From a virus, in IMG/VR virus record IMGVR_UViG_3300045120_000483, positions 32,001 through 96,000 of that record: a stretch of 64,000 nucleotides of DNA. One strand, 5' to 3'. The first letter of the stretch is position 1. Each line of letters opens with the position of its first letter. The notes beneath the pieces are model-generated. The model worked only from the letters and a program-made list of their open reading frames with translations. It had not been told where the DNA came from and did no database searches. Shown here piece by piece: positions 3,819-41,680 of the stretch. A program made the translations under genes and the position numbers.

Positions 3819-4004
3819 TCAGTTCTCTCCCGCCATGAACACTGTTCCGATGCTAAGAAAATATAAAAACATTGTCCCGGCCATCCAGGGTTTTCCATCA
3901 AAAAAGAAAGATATGGCCGAACCCAGATAACCAATGGACGCCCAAGTCATGAAGAATTGGGTGGGGGAAATTTGAAATCCCAGAATTATCATCCATCCGC
4001 CCAT
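3819..4004 (-). CDS. small membrane protein
   Basis: Two hydrophobic segments. Confidence 0.5.
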   Translation of the reverse strand: MGGWMIILGFQISPTQFFMTWASIGYLGSAISFFFDGKPWMAGTMFLYFLSIGTVFMAGEN

Positions 4005-4567
4005 CTTTGTCCGGTAACTTCATAAGGATCAGTCACCAAGTCTTTACCAACAGTTGAATCATTTCCAAAGAATTCAGGTTTCTTTCCTTCCCGAATCTCA
4101 TTGGGCATTGGTAGCATTGATAGACCCGGAAGCATCCAATCATATCTGACAAGTGTCGGAACCGACACCTCAAAATAACCATCAATGAATTTAAAAGCTT
4201 CCGACCAACTATCAAAAATCTTCGTAGAATGATACTTCAGCCAGGGTGATAAATGAGAACTAGGAATATCAGAATTATTCACAATGACAACAAGCTTCCC
4301 CATTTGATGACCCAACATTGCTTCCATGGGGGTGCCGTTGGAATTCTTGAAATAATTCAGAAGAATAAAGTCACTTCGGGCAATATCTACCTTATCCAGT
4401 TCAACAATCTCTTTCCAGCGGGGGTCGGCATCGGCATAATACCGTCGAACTGGATCAAGGTAGTCATATTCTGTAAAAGAACCCTTGATATAGGTTCTCC
4501 AATTGCTCATTTCCTCTTTGGAACATTGGGCTATGGGACCGCTCAGATAGCCAACATATCTTTTCAT
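3989..4567 (-). CDS. nucleoside 2-deoxyribosyltransferase-like protein
   Basis: YLSGPI..W..DP..D..DI..SD..GT.ME pattern. Confidence 0.75.
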   Translation of the reverse strand: MKRYVGYLSGPIAQCSKEEMSNWRTYIKGSFTEYDYLDPVRRYYADADPRWKEIVELDKVDIARSDFILLNYFKNSNGTPMEAMLGHQMGKLVVIVNNSDIPSSHLSPWLKYHSTKIFDSWSEAFKFIDGYFEVSVPTLVRYDWMLPGLSMLPMPNEIREGKKPEFFGNDSTVGKDLVTDPYEVTGQRWADG

Positions 4568-31846: not shown

Positions 31847-32254
31847 CTACTGAATAAGATGGGAACCCGAAGACGTGGGTTCCGGGAGCCTTTCTTCCTC
31901 TTCGGGTTTGAAAGGAATTGAAAGATCAAACCCCCCAATAATCTGCTTATCCGCCGCCTGAACAGTCACCATGTTACTCACATTATGAAACAACTTACCA
32001 TGCAACTGAAGAAAATGAAACGCAATGGCTGGTTTGGCAAACACAGAGCCAAAATCCAGGGGAATGATAATGGCCCTGGGAGGTTCCTGACTAACAAACA
32101 GAACAACCTCTACAATCCAAAACGATACCTTCTTCTCTTCGTCTATAAGTTCCGAAATGTTGTAAACGGCGGACTCATAGAGAAGCAAATGAAAATTGGG
32201 AAGAACAATTTCATTCTTCGGAAGATCATCAATAAGGGGGCTGTGCCATGTCAT
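31847..32254 (-). CDS. hypothetical protein
   Basis: ORF in operon. Confidence 0.55.
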   Translation of the reverse strand: MTWHSPLIDDLPKNEIVLPNFHLLLYESAVYNISELIDEEKKVSFWIVEVVLFVSQEPPRAIIIPLDFGSVFAKPAIAFHFLQLHGKLFHNVSNMVTVQAADKQIIGGFDLSIPFKPEEEERLPEPTSSGSHLIQ

Positions 32255-32789
32255 ATTTTGCTAACACAAGCTCCTTGGAGAAATAATCAAAGTTAAAGGG
32301 GTAAAAACTCTCTCCCCCTTTCAGTCTAGAGTTTTGTTGGGGCTTTATTCGTCTATCAGAAATCACCTTCTCAGCTTCCTTCCGAAAAACATTAAGATCA
32401 AGCAAATGCCATAAAACTAGATGGCCCCCCGCCGCCTTATCTCTCCAATAATACAAAAACTGATCACCATTTCCCTCCATTATTTTAGCATACTCCGTAA
32501 CAATATAAGCATTGGGATAACCCAATCGAATGGTAAATTGACCCAGATAATTCCGATAGGCTTCTTTATAATCCCTACCCCGGGATGCAATGTTGATTAT
32601 ACATGAAAGATTATCAGCTTCTACGACCCAATCAGTAGCCAATTTCCGGTCTTCATGGCTAGAAGCTTCTCTAATCAACCGCCCCGGATTTAGCTCCTGT
32701 AAAAGTTTTCTAACCCGTAACTTGTAATCTTTTTCAAATGCTTGACGCTGAGTAAACGTATCTTTTTCATAAAGTTTTGTTGTTATCAT
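32229..32789 (-). CDS. hypothetical protein (possible PD-(D/E)XK fold)
   Basis: ED..ATD, R.R, FTIR, TEYAKI..G.GD..LY. Confidence 0.55.
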   Translation of the reverse strand: MITTKLYEKDTFTQRQAFEKDYKLRVRKLLQELNPGRLIREASSHEDRKLATDWVVEADNLSCIINIASRGRDYKEAYRNYLGQFTIRLGYPNAYIVTEYAKIMEGNGDQFLYYWRDKAAGGHLVLWHLLDLNVFRKEAEKVISDRRIKPQQNSRLKGGESFYPFNFDYFSKELVLAKYDMAQPPY

Positions 32790-33313
32790 TTGGCGTATTT
32801 CATCATCCCTCTGTTGGAGTAATCATACTTACGCTTCTTCGCATCTTTGATAGAGCGGCTAAGTCTCAGCTTAGTAATACCTTCAAAAAACATCTTACCA
32901 TCCAAATGACAAAGCTCATGTTGAGCAACCCGGGCGGACATACCCGTTAAGGTCCGGGAAAATGTCTCTCCATTTGGTCCCTGGAATCGAATACGAACTG
33001 AGGTTGAGCGGGGGACCTTGATAATCAGTCCCGGAAAGGATAAACACCCTTCCTCCAGGTTGTCTTTTTCTGGAGCAAAATAAACAATCCGGGGGTTGAA
33101 GAAAACAAAGTCTTCCTGCGGACCTATCATCGCAAAGCAACGATAGGGAAGACCACACTGATTGGCGGCCAGACCATACCCATTTCGGGAGTACATCGTC
33201 GCTACTAGATTAGTAGCTAATTCGGCTGGATCAATCGGGGGTTCATTAAAATCAAAATCCGGAACGGGCGTCGTCAGGAACTCATCGTTATTCAGAGGGA
33301 TGTCATATATCAC
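32786..33313 (-). CDS. def: peptide deformylase
   Basis: GYGLAANQ, EGCLS, QHELCH motifs. Confidence 0.93.
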   Translation of the reverse strand: MIYDIPLNNDEFLTTPVPDFDFNEPPIDPAELATNLVATMYSRNGYGLAANQCGLPYRCFAMIGPQEDFVFFNPRIVYFAPEKDNLEEGCLSFPGLIIKVPRSTSVRIRFQGPNGETFSRTLTGMSARVAQHELCHLDGKMFFEGITKLRLSRSIKDAKKRKYDYSNRGMMKYAK

Positions 33314-33573: not shown

Positions 33574-33948
33574 TCAATTCCTTCTCTTGATGCTCAAAAT
33601 ACAATATTTGGGGTGAAGAACCGCGGGAGAAAAAGCACAGGGAGCATGTTCAGCAGACGTTATATAAGTAATATTAAATGTTGCTGTACGTCCCGTGTAG
33701 ACCTTTTCTCCCCAGTTGTATTCTTGGAGAACCAAGAAATCCCCAATCTTGTAGTCTCTATCCATGACACGAACATCATGGGTTTTATGACCTGCAAGAG
33801 CATCCGGAAACAAGGTTGTCCAAGATTTTACGTAATGAGTATCAGGAGGATACACCTTTTCAAGGTGCTTTTTTCCCCGACAACAAGTCCCGGCTATGTT
33901 CATTGTATGGGCAAAGACACACCCCGGATCACAACTCAAAATTATCAA
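33574..33948 (-). CDS. ASCH/DUF3850 domain protein
   Basis: H..K..F..G.KT...R..DRDY..GD.L.L.E...YTGR. Confidence 0.8.
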   Translation of the reverse strand: MIILSCDPGCVFAHTMNIAGTCCRGKKHLEKVYPPDTHYVKSWTTLFPDALAGHKTHDVRVMDRDYKIGDFLVLQEYNWGEKVYTGRTATFNITYITSAEHAPCAFSPAVLHPKYCILSIKRRN

Positions 33949-35654
33949 CCTCTAATTTGTGAGAAATTTTTGGTTTTTTCGACATGAAGAACTCTGGAAA
34001 ATTTGTCTTCATATGAAGTAACCTTGTGAGAGATCATAACGATATTTTCGCCCATTGTCAAGCTCTGAATCAACTTTAAAAAGGCTTCCGAACCATCAAT
34101 GTCCAAACTACCATCAAAAATCTCATCAAAAACTATGAGGTTTACATCTATAGACCCCCGGAGCTTTGCCAGGGCTCTCCAGGTAAAGAGAATTGCCAAA
34201 TTCAATCGGGCTTTCTCTCCCTCCGAAAAACTAGCATAAGTGAAGTTATCCCTGAAACGGGATTTGATGGTCTCCTTAAAGTTCTCATCTAACTGAAACT
34301 CCACAAAGAAGTCCAGACAGGCCAGATACTTTTGAATTAGTTGATTGATGATCGGGACATAGGTCTTGATAATCTGAGCCTTGATGCCGGTATCTTTTAG
34401 CATTTGTGAGGCAAACGACATCACATGTTCTTCATCCCTCTTCGCCAAGATGTCCGCCTGAAGCCTGTCCTTCTCAATCAACCAATCTACCAATCCGGAC
34501 GCATCAATCACCTTCTTTTGAGACAGAGTTTCAATTTCCTTTTTGGTATTATCTACCGCCGTCTGATAATACCGAAGACCCTGTTGTAGCTCAATGATCT
34601 TGTTGGATCGAACATTAATCTCATTTTGAATATGAGAAATAGCATTCAGACGTAGTTGAACTTCCTCAAGCAGACCCCGAAGCTTCTTTAACCCCCCATC
34701 GATATCCCCCAGGACCTTACTCTTTTCAAAGGTAGTCTTTTGTTTAAAATCCTCTTCAATTTCTTGATGACAGGTCGGGCAAGAATCGTTGTTAGTCAAA
34801 AATGATACTTCCCTCTTTAGGCTTCCACTCTTTTGCTGCAACTGAGTTTGAATTTTTGTCAATTCGGCTAGCCGGGAATTAACCTGTTTCAGGTCCGCCG
34901 TATCTTTCGCATATTCCTGAATTTCGTTCTGAAGGGTAGTAATCTGATTTTCCGTCTCCCGAAACTTTATAAAAGTTTCTTCAATGAACTTCTTCTTGAC
35001 CTTAATCTGATCCTCATTGTCGATTTTCATTTGTTCGACATGTCGGGTCGTCAGGGTGATTTTCTCTTCCAAAAGCTTCTTTTCTGCTTCCCATCCCTCA
35101 ATTAGCTTCTCCGTTTCAGAAACCTGATCCTTAAGGAGGGTATTCATCCGACTGAACACCTTCAGGTCCAAAAGGTCTTCAATGATAGCCCGACGCTCCG
35201 GGGCCTTTAGAGCCATAAATGGGCTGAAAGTAGCGGACCCCAACATCACAATCTGAGAGAAGGTCTTGTGGTTGACCCGCAAAATATGCTTCTCAAAGGC
35301 ATCCTGATAATCCCTAGTATCGGCCGCCTCTGTGATCAGTTCCCCGTCCTTATAGATTTCAAAAAGGGTCGGGCGGATACCCCTCCGAACCTGAAAATCA
35401 TGACCATTGATTGAGAAAGCCAACTCCACTAGACACTGATGCTTGTTTAATGATGAAGCAAGTTGGGGCTTGTTGATATCCCGAAACGGCTTATTGAACA
35501 GGGCGAAGGAAATAGCATCAATCAGAGTGCTCTTACCGGCCCCGTTCTTTCCAACTATCAATGTCGTGGCATGTTTATCTAACTCTACCTCCGTCCACTG
35601 GTTACCAAAGGATAGGAAATTTTGCCACCGGACACTCTTAAGATGTAGTCTCAT
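33945..35654 (-). CDS. gp46: Rad50/SbcC-like recombination ATPase
   Basis: GKNGAGKST, CPTC zinc hook, FSEGE, DEIFD, ISH. Confidence 0.95.
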   Translation of the reverse strand: MRLHLKSVRWQNFLSFGNQWTEVELDKHATTLIVGKNGAGKSTLIDAISFALFNKPFRDINKPQLASSLNKHQCLVELAFSINGHDFQVRRGIRPTLFEIYKDGELITEAADTRDYQDAFEKHILRVNHKTFSQIVMLGSATFSPFMALKAPERRAIIEDLLDLKVFSRMNTLLKDQVSETEKLIEGWEAEKKLLEEKITLTTRHVEQMKIDNEDQIKVKKKFIEETFIKFRETENQITTLQNEIQEYAKDTADLKQVNSRLAELTKIQTQLQQKSGSLKREVSFLTNNDSCPTCHQEIEEDFKQKTTFEKSKVLGDIDGGLKKLRGLLEEVQLRLNAISHIQNEINVRSNKIIELQQGLRYYQTAVDNTKKEIETLSQKKVIDASGLVDWLIEKDRLQADILAKRDEEHVMSFASQMLKDTGIKAQIIKTYVPIINQLIQKYLACLDFFVEFQLDENFKETIKSRFRDNFTYASFSEGEKARLNLAILFTWRALAKLRGSIDVNLIVFDEIFDGSLDIDGSEAFLKLIQSLTMGENIVMISHKVTSYEDKFSRVLHVEKTKNFSQIRG

Positions 35655-35871
35655 TCACCCCGCCATATCTAGTTCCAAATGATAATGGTGGTACAAAAGA
35701 TTCCGGTAAATTCTTAAAATGAAGAGGGATGTAAGGACAATAGACAACGACCGCATCAATAATCTGTTTGCCCTTATAATGCATAATCAGGGGTTGTGCT
35801 ATACTCTTAAGAGGAGAAGCAACAACCGCTACGGCGGCAAACAGACCCGATAAGAACCCCCGTCTATTCAT
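35638..35871 (-). CDS. Tat-signal small protein carrying a gp23 major-capsid C-terminal fragment
   Basis: MNRRGFL..A signal, then YKG....DA...YCPYIPL...F.P...F.TRYG. Confidence 0.65.
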   Translation of the reverse strand: MNRRGFLSGLFAAVAVVASPLKSIAQPLIMHYKGKQIIDAVVVYCPYIPLHFKNLPESFVPPLSFGTRYGGVNETTS

Positions 35872-36253
35872 ATCCCATTCCTCTCAACACAAACAAATAC
35901 AACGTCAGTATCAAGGTAGTTTGATGAATTAACTGATCCAATCCAATCACCACAAAAAAGGAATGGATATCTCCCTTACTATAAAAATAAGCTGTTATCC
36001 GGCTGGTGATTGCATCTGTTATAAAATGAGCGAACCCATTGAAAAATACAAAACCCAACCACACAAAAGGAAATCCTATAAAAGCTAGTTCCATGGTCCC
36101 TACACCCAGAAGGGCTGTATAGAAAGTCACATGCTCTAATAAAGCATCCCAATTTTTACTCTTATTTTCGGCCTGCCATCGGGTCTGACAAACAAAATCA
36201 GCAAACCAGTGTATGCCTAAAAGACATACAACAATCAATATCACATTTTCCAT
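35864..36253 (-). CDS. DUF3307 membrane protein
   Basis: HW.ADF..Q..K..L..H, H...D, DQ..H. Confidence 0.8.
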   Translation of the reverse strand: MENVILIVVCLLGIHWFADFVCQTRWQAENKSKNWDALLEHVTFYTALLGVGTMELAFIGFPFVWLGFVFFNGFAHFITDAITSRITAYFYSKGDIHSFFVVIGLDQLIHQTTLILTLYLFVLRGMGYE

Positions 36254-36257
36254 GATC

Positions 36258-37298
36258 TCACTCCATAGCCAAAGCTTGATTATACAAATCAACAAACAAG
36301 GTGTCAAGCTTGGAATGATCGACTGTGGCGTTTACCGCTTTGGCATAATCCCGCATGATCGTCAGGGTATCTTTAGTATCGGAAATGATCAGGTCATCAG
36401 AGACCTTATCCAGGTTAAGATGATCCTCAACTATCTGAAACTCAATGGGCTTGGCGGCCTCTACTCTAGAAAGGAAATGATCATATTTGATTTGATTGTT
36501 ACGTTCCCTGACAATGACCTTGACGTATTTTCCGGTTATAGCGGCAGGATCGAATTGTCCTCCATCGGCATCGTCATAATGGACTTTGGCGAAAAGATCA
36601 TACGGATTACAGATAAACTCAAGTTCTCTAGTGTCAGTATCAAAAATGTGAAAGCCCCTAGCATCACCAAAATCAGTCCAAGTAAACTGAGAATGACTCC
36701 CAAGATAATGGATATTGGCGCGTGAAGACCGGTGATGGAAATGTCCCGTACAGACCATTTCAAATTTTTGATAGATTGCCGGATCGTCGCCATCATGATT
36801 GAACACCCCTCTGAACATCGGAAATCCCGCTAACTCCAAATGACCAAAGACGATTTTGGCGTCTGTGCTATTTAGCAAATCGACCGTTTTGTCTCTGTTG
36901 CCGTCACATATCCAGGGAACGAAAAGAATTTTGGTACCGTTAAAAACAACTTCGGCGGGGTCCTCATAATAGGTCAGATCATACTTATCCAGAATTTCAG
37001 TAGCAATAGAGATACACATATCTTCTCTGTTGAAGATATCATGGTTCCCCAAGATCAGATGAAAATCATAATCCCGACAAAGAGGTTCCACAAAATCCTT
37101 TCGTAAGCAGGAAAGACTTTTGAAGTTGATGTACTTACGTCGGTCAACGATATCACCCAAATGAACAACGGTCGTTATTCCCCGCTGTTTCAGGGTCGGA
37201 AAGAACACCATATCAAAGAAACGTTTATCGTTCTCTATGAAGACCGGAGCGTCATTCCGGACGCCTGCATGGGTATCAGTTATCAAAGCAAGCTTCAT
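36258..37298 (-). CDS. gp47: Mre11/SbcD-like nuclease
   Basis: DTH.G, GD..D.R, GNHD, GH.E, GHFH. Confidence 0.95.
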   Translation of the reverse strand: MKLALITDTHAGVRNDAPVFIENDKRFFDMVFFPTLKQRGITTVVHLGDIVDRRKYINFKSLSCLRKDFVEPLCRDYDFHLILGNHDIFNREDMCISIATEILDKYDLTYYEDPAEVVFNGTKILFVPWICDGNRDKTVDLLNSTDAKIVFGHLELAGFPMFRGVFNHDGDDPAIYQKFEMVCTGHFHHRSSRANIHYLGSHSQFTWTDFGDARGFHIFDTDTRELEFICNPYDLFAKVHYDDADGGQFDPAAITGKYVKVIVRERNNQIKYDHFLSRVEAAKPIEFQIVEDHLNLDKVSDDLIISDTKDTLTIMRDYAKAVNATVDHSKLDTLFVDLYNQALAME

Positions 37299-38620: not shown

Positions 38621-40070
38621 TAAGTCCTATTTGGTAAAGTTTGTAATCGTATTGTTCTTCATTATAAAGCTTAATTCTCTCCATGCTATGTTTAATGATA
38701 GTATTCGGTCTATCCTTATAAGTCATATCATCAGCAATATCATAAAGTGTACAAGTTTGACCTTTGTATTTCCTCAGACCTCTTCCGATAGACTGAAGGA
38801 CCTTGATTTTTGATTTGTAGGGACTACCGAATATGATGTGTTTCAGGGTCGGAGCATCAAACCCCTCCGACACACACCCGTAACTCCCCAACAAAACAGC
38901 ATTGGACTGGTTTGCCAGCTTGGCCCTGATAAGCTCCCGCTCATTCAATCCGGTACCTCCATAAATCAAATGAAGGGGACGATCCGGGGGAAGGAGCTTC
39001 TTCAGGTCCTCATAAAGAATTTTGCCATGTTTATCCACAAGGCGGAAAAGAATTATTGTATTCCCTTTAAGGGATAATGTCAAGTTGTTTATGTATCTCT
39101 TTCGACATTCTTGAGAAAGTATATATTCTAGCTCAGCGGGATAATCCGGATGATATCCCAGACCCTTACAGATAGGGTCCGGATACCTCAGGGATAGCAC
39201 TTTTATCTTAAGTTGGGCAACATCTCCCCTGTCCATCAGTTCTTTGGTAGTTACGACCTTATGAATAGGGCCCAGAAGTCCTTCTATTACCCACTGGTTC
39301 ATTTCAACATCATCTAGGGTACCGGTGAAGCCATAGCGGTATTCGACGCCCCTACAGGCCTCTAAAACGTTCTTAATAGATTGGGACTTCGCTCCATGGA
39401 CCTCATCGACCATAACCAGTTCAAATTGGTTAAAATATTCCGGGGGTTCCTGATAAATCGACTGCCAAGTGCTGACCACAATCGTTTTGTCTGTTTTTTT
39501 AGATTGTCCCTCATAGATCGGATGAACTTCCCGGGGGTCCAGGCCATATTCTTTAAAATGCCCAATTAGCTGTTCAACCAACCCAATCCGGGGGACGATA
39601 ATCAGGGTCTTCATTCCCATGAAGTATCGCACCAAAAGATAGATAATCAGGCTTTTACCGGATGCAGTCGGAGAGATATAGACCCCCCGCTTCTCCCGGG
39701 CGGCCTTGATGAAAGTGTCTAGCTGATAATCTCTAACAGGAAAAGGAAGCTTCAGGGATTTGATGAAATCCTCTGCTTCAACAACGGAGAACTCATTCTG
39801 AATGATAGGATTGGCAAACTCAACGGAATAACCATTATCCTTCGCGAAATGCTCCAGATGATGACGTAGCCCCGCATAAAGCCGGGACCTACCCTTCTGG
39901 AAAAGATGTAATTTTCCGTCCCAGTTCTTCAGACGGGGCGACCTCTTCCTCATGTGTTCCGCGTTGGGAACATCAAAGGTAAAGGCGTCGTAAAGCTCCA
40001 GGGCTATGTGTTCTTCGCACTCAATTCGATCATAAACTGAATTTACCGAAAATACTTTAATGTCAGACAC
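38598..40070 (-). CDS. uvsW: SF2 helicase UvsW
   Basis: WDGK, RDYQ, PTASGKS, TWQS, DEVH, TGT, QSIGRGLR. Confidence 0.95.
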   Translation of the reverse strand: MSDIKVFSVNSVYDRIECEEHIALELYDAFTFDVPNAEHMRKRSPRLKNWDGKLHLFQKGRSRLYAGLRHHLEHFAKDNGYSVEFANPIIQNEFSVVEAEDFIKSLKLPFPVRDYQLDTFIKAAREKRGVYISPTASGKSLIIYLLVRYFMGMKTLIIVPRIGLVEQLIGHFKEYGLDPREVHPIYEGQSKKTDKTIVVSTWQSIYQEPPEYFNQFELVMVDEVHGAKSQSIKNVLEACRGVEYRYGFTGTLDDVEMNQWVIEGLLGPIHKVVTTKELMDRGDVAQLKIKVLSLRYPDPICKGLGYHPDYPAELEYILSQECRKRYINNLTLSLKGNTIILFRLVDKHGKILYEDLKKLLPPDRPLHLIYGGTGLNERELIRAKLANQSNAVLLGSYGCVSEGFDAPTLKHIIFGSPYKSKIKVLQSIGRGLRKYKGQTCTLYDIADDMTYKDRPNTIIKHSMERIKLYNEEQYDYKLYQIGLNEKKEAV

Positions 40071-40896
40071 TTACAGTTGTATTTACACTCCTATAATTCT
40101 CTTCAGCTACTTCACTGACAGCTACAACAATTTTTTCAATATCAGCACAATAATGACCGGCCGAATGAAAGTCACCCATTTCTATAATTTTCAATTCCCC
40201 ATCCTCCATCGCTCCAATATCAAGAACCAAAACCAGGGTCGGATTCCACTCTCTTATTCGCTCTTCCGCAAAAGTAATTACTTGTGGAGGTACATAAGGA
40301 CTTTTTCTTAATTGCCCATCTACCCGATAGAGACTTCCGGTAACAACCTTTCCATCCACAATAAACAACCTCCATTCCTGTTCGATCACCTTAGGTAGGG
40401 AAACAGCAATTAAGAGGGACCCATCAAATTCATATCCACCTTTGCAAATTTCTTCAGACCATTTACAAAGGGAATTCACTGTCATAAGCATCCCATCAAA
40501 CTGCTTCATATCCCCATTAGGACGAACAAAAACCTTATCATTTTGTCTATATGAAAAAAGTTTTGTTGAAACTACCCCAAGAGGAAGAATACTGGCATCA
40601 TGATTGACCATGTACGGACCCCAATGATCTAAATAATTCTTTACCGTAAAAATATTCTCATCAAAAAAAGCCCCCGGGCTCCATCGGCCGGAATCCACTA
40701 CATTTTTAATAAAACGGGTAGAACCATAAGCAATAATTGGACCATCATGATTTATAACAAGAAGACCTTCCGGACCCGTGAACGGAATTACAACAATACC
40801 TTGAAATGATCGACCATGCTTAATACAAGCTGCTTGTATAGCAGCAGAACTATCCTCATTTAGTAAATTAGATTGGACTACCCAAAGAGCTTTCAT
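40063..40896 (-). CDS. ATP-grasp domain protein (DUF4343/R2K-like)
   Basis: FVRP..D.K.F.G, EWR.F...G..V.GS.Y, D.., IIE...SAG.Y. Confidence 0.75.
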   Translation of the reverse strand: MKALWVVQSNLLNEDSSAAIQAACIKHGRSFQGIVVIPFTGPEGLLVINHDGPIIAYGSTRFIKNVVDSGRWSPGAFFDENIFTVKNYLDHWGPYMVNHDASILPLGVVSTKLFSYRQNDKVFVRPNGDMKQFDGMLMTVNSLCKWSEEICKGGYEFDGSLLIAVSLPKVIEQEWRLFIVDGKVVTGSLYRVDGQLRKSPYVPPQVITFAEERIREWNPTLVLVLDIGAMEDGELKIIEMGDFHSAGHYCADIEKIVVAVSEVAEENYRSVNTTVSV

Positions 40897-41257: not shown

Positions 41258-41680
41258 TCACCCATTTTTCATCTTCTCTTCCAGAATCGCATTACGACGG
41301 GCCTGAATATGTTCAGAAAAGTCATTATCCAGGTTACTAGCAGAAGTGTGATACCTAGAAAGATGATCCAGGACCCGGTTATCGCCAAAATGATAAGTGC
41401 GTATGACCTCTTGGTTTTTAACCCTTCCAGGCTGGTCTTTATTGATCTGAGCAACAATCCAGGGCTCCAATAGCTTTCCCAACGCCGAAAAGGCCTCAGA
41501 GAAGTTCTGCTTCCGGCTGCGTTGCCGCTGTCCGGTGGTTTTCAGACCGGACGGAATGTGAGTGACCCGGCAACAAGCCTGAGATTTATTCCGGTTTTGG
41601 CCGCCGTTCCCTGTTCCGGAAAACCACTCTATCCGGAAGTCTTTTCGGGTGTAACAATATCGTTCGATTCGTTCTGCCAT
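41258..41680 (-). CDS. truncated class I release factor (GGQ peptidyl-tRNA hydrolase domain)
   Basis: SG.G.GGQ..NK, R.TH.PSG, Q..RS..QN, IRTY.F...RV.DH. Confidence 0.85.
   Translation of the reverse strand: MAERIERYCYTRKDFRIEWFSGTGNGGQNRNKSQACCRVTHIPSGLKTTGQRQRSRKQNFSEAFSALGKLLEPWIVAQINKDQPGRVKNQEVIRTYHFGDNRVLDHLSRYHTSASNLDNDFSEHIQARRNAILEEKMKNG

Follow-up and report, generated by a model that had tools for sequence, protein, structure and literature searches.

A capsid-derived module behind a putative twin-arginine leader in the DNA-metabolism cluster of a T4-like phage

Introduction

Why would a T4-like phage keep a piece of a major capsid protein among its DNA-metabolism genes, away from the head genes and behind what looks like an export signal? 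The question is raised by a small gene, P0001, in a 64,000-nucleotide (nt) stretch of viral DNA (positions 32,001 to 96,000 of IMG/VR record IMGVR_UViG_3300045120_000483; hereafter, the window). The window is part of a 104,881-bp viral record (G000) that is ~59% complete and stems from a soil, T4-like phage. Among sequencing runs, a soil metagenome is the sole one to contain this DNA in full and may be its source; no RNA data set turned up. We report that the P0001 protein is a homologous fragment of a capsid protein—as opposed to a capsid protein itself—and that it belongs to a family of small proteins (‘minis’) composed of the same two parts. From its sequence features, we consider it somewhat better than evenly likely that the mini is an early envelope peptide, targeted by the twin-arginine translocation (Tat) pathway, that mimics a conserved capsid surface.

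Results

The mini-gene encodes a block of the gp23 P domain

An earlier note on this DNA had read P0001 as an open reading frame (ORF) opening with the leader MNRRGFLSGLFAAVAVVASPLKSIA and continuing into a capsid fragment of ~40 amino acids (aa). The ORF is on the minus strand and encodes 77 aa. Both the ORF and its leader are as quoted there, except that six residues between the leader and YKGK, namely QPLIMH, had been left out of the protein sequence. The fragment is present as well and is longer than stated, at about 50 residues (25–77).

Likeness to the C-terminal block of gp23, which the earlier note had proposed from the sequence alone, was borne out by each comparison. The Pfam Gp23 profile (PF07068) matched P0001 through its positions 290–351 of 376 and scored 33.8 bits (E 3.2e-8), above the gathering cut-off of 24.4, and PHROG 138 (‘major head protein’) with an E value of 9.5e-7. 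BLASTP against the phage’s own 470-aa capsid protein returned 41% identity over 70 residues (E 7e-14), and a profile built from 83 family members aligned by hhalign to one built from 23 capsid proteins with a probability of 99.6% (E 1.4e-24). This profile–profile alignment pairs P0001 residues 25–77 with residues 388–466 of the own capsid protein and extends to a terminal YYR..V motif that some relatives retain, while comparison with solved structures equates the module with T4 gp23 436–482. These alignments make residues 25–77 a homolog of the C-terminal block in the P domain of gp23-type capsid proteins, and the module corresponds to the beta-hairpin and strand block of that domain. Some core positions of P0001 are unusual, reading DAVVVY as compared to DAG.FY in the family. 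Two outcomes that the earlier note had set against its own reading—no significant gp23 profile match, or an ORF neither conserved nor translated—did not arise: the gp23 profile hit is a significant one, and conservation of the ORF is seen within the family described below.

In T4, the gp31-bypass mutation A455V falls within the equivalent motif, YYAPYVAL; other bypass sites are in the spine helix, and the AP linker follows the A455V site at residues 486–502 (PMC9546572). By alignment, the P0001 fragment maps to the P-domain strand bearing this bypass site. The fragment lies outside the Gol region (about T4 gp23 residues 93–122), the trigger of Lit, as it aligns to the C-terminal segments given above in both T4 and the phage’s own capsid protein. 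Nor is it a complete HK97-type subunit (about 400–520 aa), given its 77 aa and the single block covered.

The gene also lies outside any head-gene module, between gp47 and gp46 and behind a predicted sigma-70 promoter. Its placement by the earlier note in the early gp47–gp46 region, far from the head genes, was accurate: the own capsid gene is found at ~11.4–12.8 kilobases (kb) of G000, outside the window and ~55 kb from the mini-gene, where it adjoins a 382-aa ORF taken as the scaffold by position and composition. AlphaFold2 (AF2) modeling of the P0001 monomer gave a predicted local distance difference test (pLDDT) score of 65 and a predicted template modeling (pTM) score of 0.16; for the mosaic relative P0058, pLDDT was 59. 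Complex prediction of the own capsid protein with P0001 residues 22–77 scored below the mark.

The leader resembles a Tat signal peptide

The leader comprises MNRRGFLS, the hydrophobic segment GLFAAVAVVAS and a c-region, PLKSIA, and ends in a small-x-small site before Q26. Residues 2–8 (N-R-R-G-F-L-S) follow the Tat motif (S/T)-R-R-x-F-L-K. The Ala/Val/Gly-rich hydrophobic stretch of 13 residues is within the range of a signal-peptide h-region (about 12–20 residues), and the c-region supplies both a basic residue and a putative signal-peptidase site (P-L-K-S-I-A|Q). AF2 placed a helix at residues 3–16.

The Tat signal peptide claimed by the earlier note is thus backed by the motif and, as detailed next, by the family consensus. 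It falls short by profile score, since TIGR01409 reached 14.3 bits on P0001, below its cut-off of 16.7 (E 0.039). The same model matched 12 of 36 relatives (best E 7.4e-6), PF10518 remained sub-threshold on the relatives (13.9–20.8 bits vs 22.7), and a protein atlas search returned Tat-signal look-alikes, all of them sub-threshold. Over 83 members, the leader consensus reads [N/T/S]RRxFL[K/A/R]GL, with N, T or S at −1 in 67, F in 61, L in 56 and K or R in 33 of the 83, and the uncharged stretch has a median length of 15 residues. These 83 relatives were picked for RR and two hydrophobic residues; N/T/S before RR, K/R after FL and the length of the stretch were outside the selection criteria. 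Such a stretch would be of signal-peptide rather than membrane-anchor length, and cleavage is predicted at SIA|QP. Taken together, Tat targeting of P0001 seems to us modestly probable.

An origin of the leader from the preceding capsid strand was considered and dropped. In pairwise BLAST and tblastn, similarity to the capsid protein had seemed to start at residue 5, within the leader; the profile–profile alignment begins at residue 25, and the leader is therefore not homologous to the capsid protein. No second Tat-like ORF was found in the 105-kb record (roughly 59% complete).

A family of leader-plus-capsid-piece minis in T4-related phages

A word-indexed search with P0001 alone against 5.8 billion clusters returned P0001 as the sole match, which made an exhaustive phmmer search necessary. 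Across 1.84 billion representatives, this yielded 43 matches, 40 of them short. Thirty-four of the 40 (59–169 aa) resemble P0001 end to end at 39–55% identity and share its type of leader along with the core YKG..DAG.FYCPYIPL ... FKTRYG; of the other six, five resemble capsid-gene fragments and one seems N-terminally truncated. Residues Y44, P46, Y47 and P49 are invariant in the 36-member alignment, and both arginines are nearly so. A profile search reported 812 proteins of 32–216 aa. The RR-plus-hydrophobic leader is present in 85 of 137 sequences retrieved, and the rest look like contig-end capsid fragments.

We defined the family operationally as proteins of 60–170 aa with an RR leader and a YKG..DAG.FYCPYIPL core (F.TRYG being optional), encoded by a T4-related genome that harbors a separate full-length gp23-type gene. 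P0001 falls within this definition, and every carrier genome checked possesses the separate full-length capsid gene. The longer relatives contain no extra Pfam domains. A locus search with the family alignment matched full-length capsid genes only; degenerate DNA patterns retrieved one viral locus and five metagenome loci. The neighbors of the minis differ among loci and include GMP reductase, an HD-domain gene, replication genes, bilin reductase and thyX.

The 50,697 cultured-phage records yielded members solely from Cuauhnahuacvirus, a genus of Rhizobium phages, including RHph_TM30, RHph_Y65 (EVB97_064) and relatives. Selection across homologs, which the earlier note had put forward as a check, was assessed on six Rhizobium phage copies: ratios of nonsynonymous to synonymous change (pN/pS) of 0.08–0.19 in the more diverged pairs indicate purifying selection in this cultured clade. 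All named family members are annotated as ‘hypothetical protein’, and our literature search found no description of a leader-plus-capsid-piece family. The family is widespread among T4-related phages and, as far as that search shows, undescribed.

Arrays and mosaics suggest a constant leader and a constrained motif

Two loci carry several minis in a row. In the complete 256-kb phage IMGVR_UViG_3300037466_002112 (G002), four consecutive genes with paralogous M[K/Q]RR[D/E]FL leaders (L110, 3094–4765) encode a gp23 spine-helix piece (199 aa; profile 139–186, E 1.5e-10), the C-terminal block (P0033, 88 aa) and, in two cases, unrelated cargo (137 and 139 aa). A leaderless, Gol-like ORF of 89 aa resides elsewhere in that genome (L123, 1504–1773). 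At a second locus (L115, 8899–9594; JACCDO011362415.1), three consecutive small ORFs lie downstream of DNA polymerase and clamp-loader genes. Two have a leader, followed by a Gol-type piece in one (87 aa) and by the C-terminal block in the other (93 aa); the third, of 59 aa, has no leader and again contains IYSPYIPI. The presence of other capsid pieces and of unrelated cargo behind a P0001-type leader suggests that it is the leader that forms the constant functional element.

Within single minis, capsid segments may also be combined. In the L010 mini (4001–4219), a LKSKWTDEMSKDL block, resembling the strand before the spine helix, precedes the hairpin; in P0058 and P0089, RKLSEEWTFE-like blocks follow it. 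The RKL..W.E..QDL-like block of these mosaics comes from ~190 residues upstream in the capsid protein. Mosaic minis thus probably join segments that are distant in the capsid sequence and adjacent in the P domain, which hints that their cargo keeps P-domain-like contacts.

Ranking capsid sequences by similarity to the mini placed the own capsid protein 1st in G001, 3rd in G002, 21st of 80 in the phage under study and last in RHph_Y65, whose capsid reads VYAPYMPL and whose mini reads FYCPYIP. Minis are therefore inconsistent trackers of their own capsid protein, implying that minis do not simply arise anew in every genome and that the canonical motif is under its own constraint.

A subfamily (P0034, P0035, P0046 and P0048–P0050) carries an N-terminal extension of 15–20 residues, MK(T/V/M)YQDPV.KFNF, before RR, and a more hydrophobic LWAFLLLLVTAP stretch. 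The start of the extension seems to resemble MKTYQEFIAE, the T4 capsid-targeting sequence.

The mini-gene is embedded in a putative early transcription unit

The mini-gene is coupled to both of its neighbors (Table 1): its ATG overlaps the end of the DUF3307 gene by 8 nt, and its stop lies 17 nt inside gp46. The true start of the DUF3307 gene is likely the ATG at 36253. A perfect sigma-70 consensus promoter sits in the last codons of gp47, ~20 nt ahead of that start, and is likely the early promoter of a unit composed of the DUF3307 gene, the mini-gene and gp46. The T4-type late promoter TATAAATA occurs once in the window, at 11–18, and not near the mini-gene. The perfect sigma-70 match and the absence of TATAAATA nearby suggest early transcription by the host polymerase. 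Two further sites on the same strand, at 39083–39055 and 34061–34033, match the sigma-70 consensus at 11 of 12 positions. The overlaps with both neighbors, the GAGG site 8 nt upstream and the 12/12 promoter argue for a real gene, and we hold with high confidence that P0001 is a genuine conserved gene and a member of the family.

Table 1 Features of the mini-gene locus and related loci. Positions are those of the window unless another locus is named.
Feature	Position	Strand	Basis or remark
Mini-gene P0001, 77 codons plus stop	35638..35871	(-)	ORF list and translation
Putative Tat-type leader, residues 1–25	35797..35871	(-)	Motif and family consensus; TIGR01409 score below cut-off
Capsid-derived module, residues 26–77 (YKGK..DA..VYCPYIPL ... 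FGTRYG)	35641..35796	(-)	Homology; gp23 P-domain beta-sheet block
Shine-Dalgarno-like GAGAGGA	35879..35885	(-)	Read from sequence; GAGG core ends 8 nt before ATG
Sigma-70 consensus promoter, TTGACA-17-TATAAT	36279..36307	(-)	12/12 consensus match
DUF3307 / PHROG 2470 multi-pass membrane protein gene	35864..36253	(-)	Upstream of and overlapping the mini-gene
gp46 (SbcC-like recombination nuclease subunit)	33945..35654	(-)	Downstream, overlapping; PHROG 77, E 1.5e-149
gp47 (SbcD-like recombination nuclease subunit)	36258..37298	(-)	Upstream; PHROG 100, E 2.2e-91
Endonuclease VII-like gene, 208 aa	37295–37921	(-)	PHROG 2633; extra Cys-rich N-terminal motifs; inserted between gp55 and gp47
Peptide deformylase	32786–33313	(-)	PHROG 2890; translation-related auxiliary gene
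RF-1-domain, peptidyl-tRNA-hydrolase-like protein	41258–41680	(-)	PHROG 20323; translation-related auxiliary gene
R2K clade-3 ATP-grasp	40063–40896	(-)	PF14243 (formerly DUF4343); PHROG 7313; 4.2 kb upstream of the mini-gene, same strand
R2K clade-3 ATP-grasp in other carriers	L025 3201–4004; L110 2125–2925		

Along the minus strand, an R2K-type ATP-grasp gene is followed by genes for a UvsW-like helicase, the late sigma factor gp55, a 59-aa ORF, the endonuclease VII-like protein and gp47, and then by the DUF3307 gene, the mini-gene, gp46, an ASCH-like gene and peptide deformylase. This neighborhood is a T4-type early/middle DNA-metabolism cluster. The DUF3307 gene was not associated with minis in three other genomes. 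The nearest relatives of the phage are distant: the best gp47 match in IMG/VR is 47% identical, and cultured phages align at only ~67% DNA identity, over short stretches.

Discussion

An envelope-located capsid mimic is the favored reading

What, then, might a capsid fragment do behind such a leader? Judging by its promoter, the mini-gene would be transcribed early by the host RNA polymerase, together with the DUF3307 gene and gp46. Guided by the leader motif, the 77-aa precursor would reach the Tat receptor in the inner membrane of the host, where cutting at SIA|QP would probably release a 52-aa peptide into the periplasm; alternatively, the precursor may remain docked at the membrane. There, the hairpin, presumably unable to fold alone, could bind a partner via the capsid-conserved YKG, DAG and Y-x-P-Y-x-P residues. 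The mini would hence be a molecular mimic of a capsid surface at the cell envelope, as opposed to a shell subunit or a dead fragment. We favor this reading because the leader is constant in the family and its hydrophobic stretch is of signal-peptide length, and because the cargo retains the capsid-conserved residues and is not predicted to fold alone. That the mini actually acts as a mimic at the envelope is a more tentative proposition than its targeting, and one we would put at somewhat under even.

Several points weigh against an envelope mimic. The Tat machinery might reject an unfolded hydrophobic cargo; Tat cargo is expected to fold, and neither P0001 nor P0058 received a confident AF2 fold. 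The TIGR01409 score of P0001 is below the cut-off. P0001 has no close relative among the 5.8 billion clusters, and selection on its own copy is read from the family. We know of no periplasmic partner for a capsid piece. The mimic idea itself draws solely on the retention of capsid-conserved residues, and detection is biased towards fragments of the most conserved capsid segments.

Weighing other explanations

Capsid proteins are proven triggers of immunity: T4 Gp23 activates CmdTAC by binding the SecB-like chaperone CmdC, and no gp23 mutants escaping CmdTAC could be obtained, suggesting that conserved regions are sensed (PMC11618068). This precedent makes an immune decoy or sensor antagonist attractive, whereby an early capsid epitope binds a host defense sensor or chaperone that detects new capsid protein, and the complex is then sequestered at the membrane, or removed there, by virtue of the leader and ahead of the late phase in which capsid is made. 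In line with such a role, the residues that minis retain are precisely those best conserved in the capsid, the promoter ahead of the mini-gene looks early, and sets of minis span several capsid segments in other genomes. However, one would expect a trigger peptide on its own to provoke abortive infection and not to prevent it, true export would remove the epitope from the cytoplasm, where known sensors act, and no sensor is known for segment 436–482, which differs from Gol. We therefore regard a decoy function of P0001 as unlikely, and we are similarly doubtful that minis in general serve against host factors able to recognize new capsid protein, be they immune sensors or chaperone-like detectors, by neutralizing these or clearing them from the cytoplasm. 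T4 proheads assemble on the inner membrane, which would suit a folding or assembly factor, namely a membrane-docked fragment that pairs with gp23 or its chaperonin and nucleates, tethers or delays head assembly. The location of a gp31-bypass site within the equivalent T4 motif would agree with this, as would the spine-strand block RKL..W.E added in the L010 mini, P0058 and P0089, which suggests that three-dimensional neighbors of the P domain are kept together. Yet expression appears to be early, not late, and own-capsid ranks vary from first to last among the four genomes. In addition, a hydrophobic stretch as short as that of P0001 and of the family median, combined with a predicted signal-peptidase site, would leave the capsid piece on the periplasmic side, remote from proheads, so that a head anchor fits poorly. 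An assembly role thus appears improbable.

The unrelated cargo behind P0001-type leaders in the tandem paralogs of L110 raises another explanation, in which what counts is the leader, by occupying or exploiting the Tat translocon, and the capsid piece serves simply as a handy cargo unable to fold. For arbitrary cargo, though, one would not expect core residues to be invariant at ~40% overall identity, and we deem leader-driven interference with the Tat pathway quite improbable. A further explanation takes P0001-type minis as precursor peptides, i.e., substrates of a phage R2K-type ATP-grasp ligase, as in ribosomal peptide natural products. The layout of a leader followed by a conserved core would be compatible with that, and R2K genes do lie near minis: of four mini-carrying genomes examined for an R2K ATP-grasp, three have one and the other is a 12%-complete fragment, the R2K_3 gene directly precedes and overlaps the mini-gene start in the Rhizobium phages examined, and in G002 it is located two genes upstream of the Tat-leader array. 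The enzyme is rare, with 64 occurrences in the 50,697 cultured-phage records. Against this, four other R2K-bearing phages had no Tat-leader ORF within 4 kb, the other mini loci examined had no R2K gene in their flanks, and the leader is a Tat-type signal rather than a known recognition leader. The possible R2K–mini link is a lead only and not a general one, and we consider a substrate role very improbable. Finally, P0001 might be a decaying remnant of a capsid gene in a fortuitously open frame, as the lack of a close relative and the odd DAVVVY core positions could be taken to indicate. Its intact start, stop and ribosome site, the coupling to both neighbors, the dozens of full-length relatives whose core is invariant and whose RR is nearly so, and the purifying selection seen among cultured phages leave this explanation barely credible.

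Significance of a possible envelope-targeted capsid piece

Capsid proteins are among the main targets of bacterial immune sensing, and the small early genes of phages are mostly unexplained. If capsid-core pieces are indeed placed behind a host export signal, this would point to a new strategy of counter-defense or exclusion, to the reuse of capsid parts for some envelope function, or to phage infection being tied to the Tat pathway, none of which a 2026 review of Tat transport brings up (PMC13673990). Should the minis prove to be mimics of the decoy type, they would be the first Tat substrates encoded by phages and a new class of anti-defense or exclusion device. The family lends itself to direct tests, with cultured Rhizobium phages carrying a member under purifying selection.

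Comparison with known systems

P0001 shares the Y-x-P-Y-x-P-L and F.TRYG strands with T4 gp23 and its vertex paralog gp24 (PF07068; PDB 5VF3 and 7VRT). It retains ~50 of ~470 residues and, lacking the N-arm, E-loop, spine helix and A domain, cannot form an HK97-fold subunit. Unlike gp23, it bears an export-type leader and is encoded at an early DNA-metabolism location, in a genome with a full-length capsid gene elsewhere. With Tat signal peptides (TIGR01409 and PF10518), be they cleaved or uncleaved as in the Rieske type, P0001 has in common the motif, the h-region, the basic residue of the c-region and the small-x-small site. It differs from the usual Tat substrates in being encoded by a lytic phage and in a cargo that is an apparently unfoldable 52-residue capsid fragment instead of a cofactor-bearing enzyme. 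A 2026 review of Tat transport lists no phage-encoded substrates and names phages only for SlyD/PhiX174 and T4 RI (PMC13673990).

For a short conserved capsid piece active towards host immunity, precedent exists in exclusion by the Gol peptide, the Lit protease and EF-Tu, and in capsid sensing by CmdTAC (PMC11618068). Gol (T4 93–122) is a trigger inside full-length gp23, whereas P0001 is a separate gene corresponding to 436–482.

The antiholin RI of T4, which is small, made early and equipped with a cleavable signal peptide, acts in the periplasm. RI has no sequence similarity to P0001, lacks a twin-arginine motif and is not capsid-derived. The resemblance is one of design and extends to the size class, seemingly early expression, the export signal at the N-terminus and a role for the phage at the envelope, presumed in the case of P0001.

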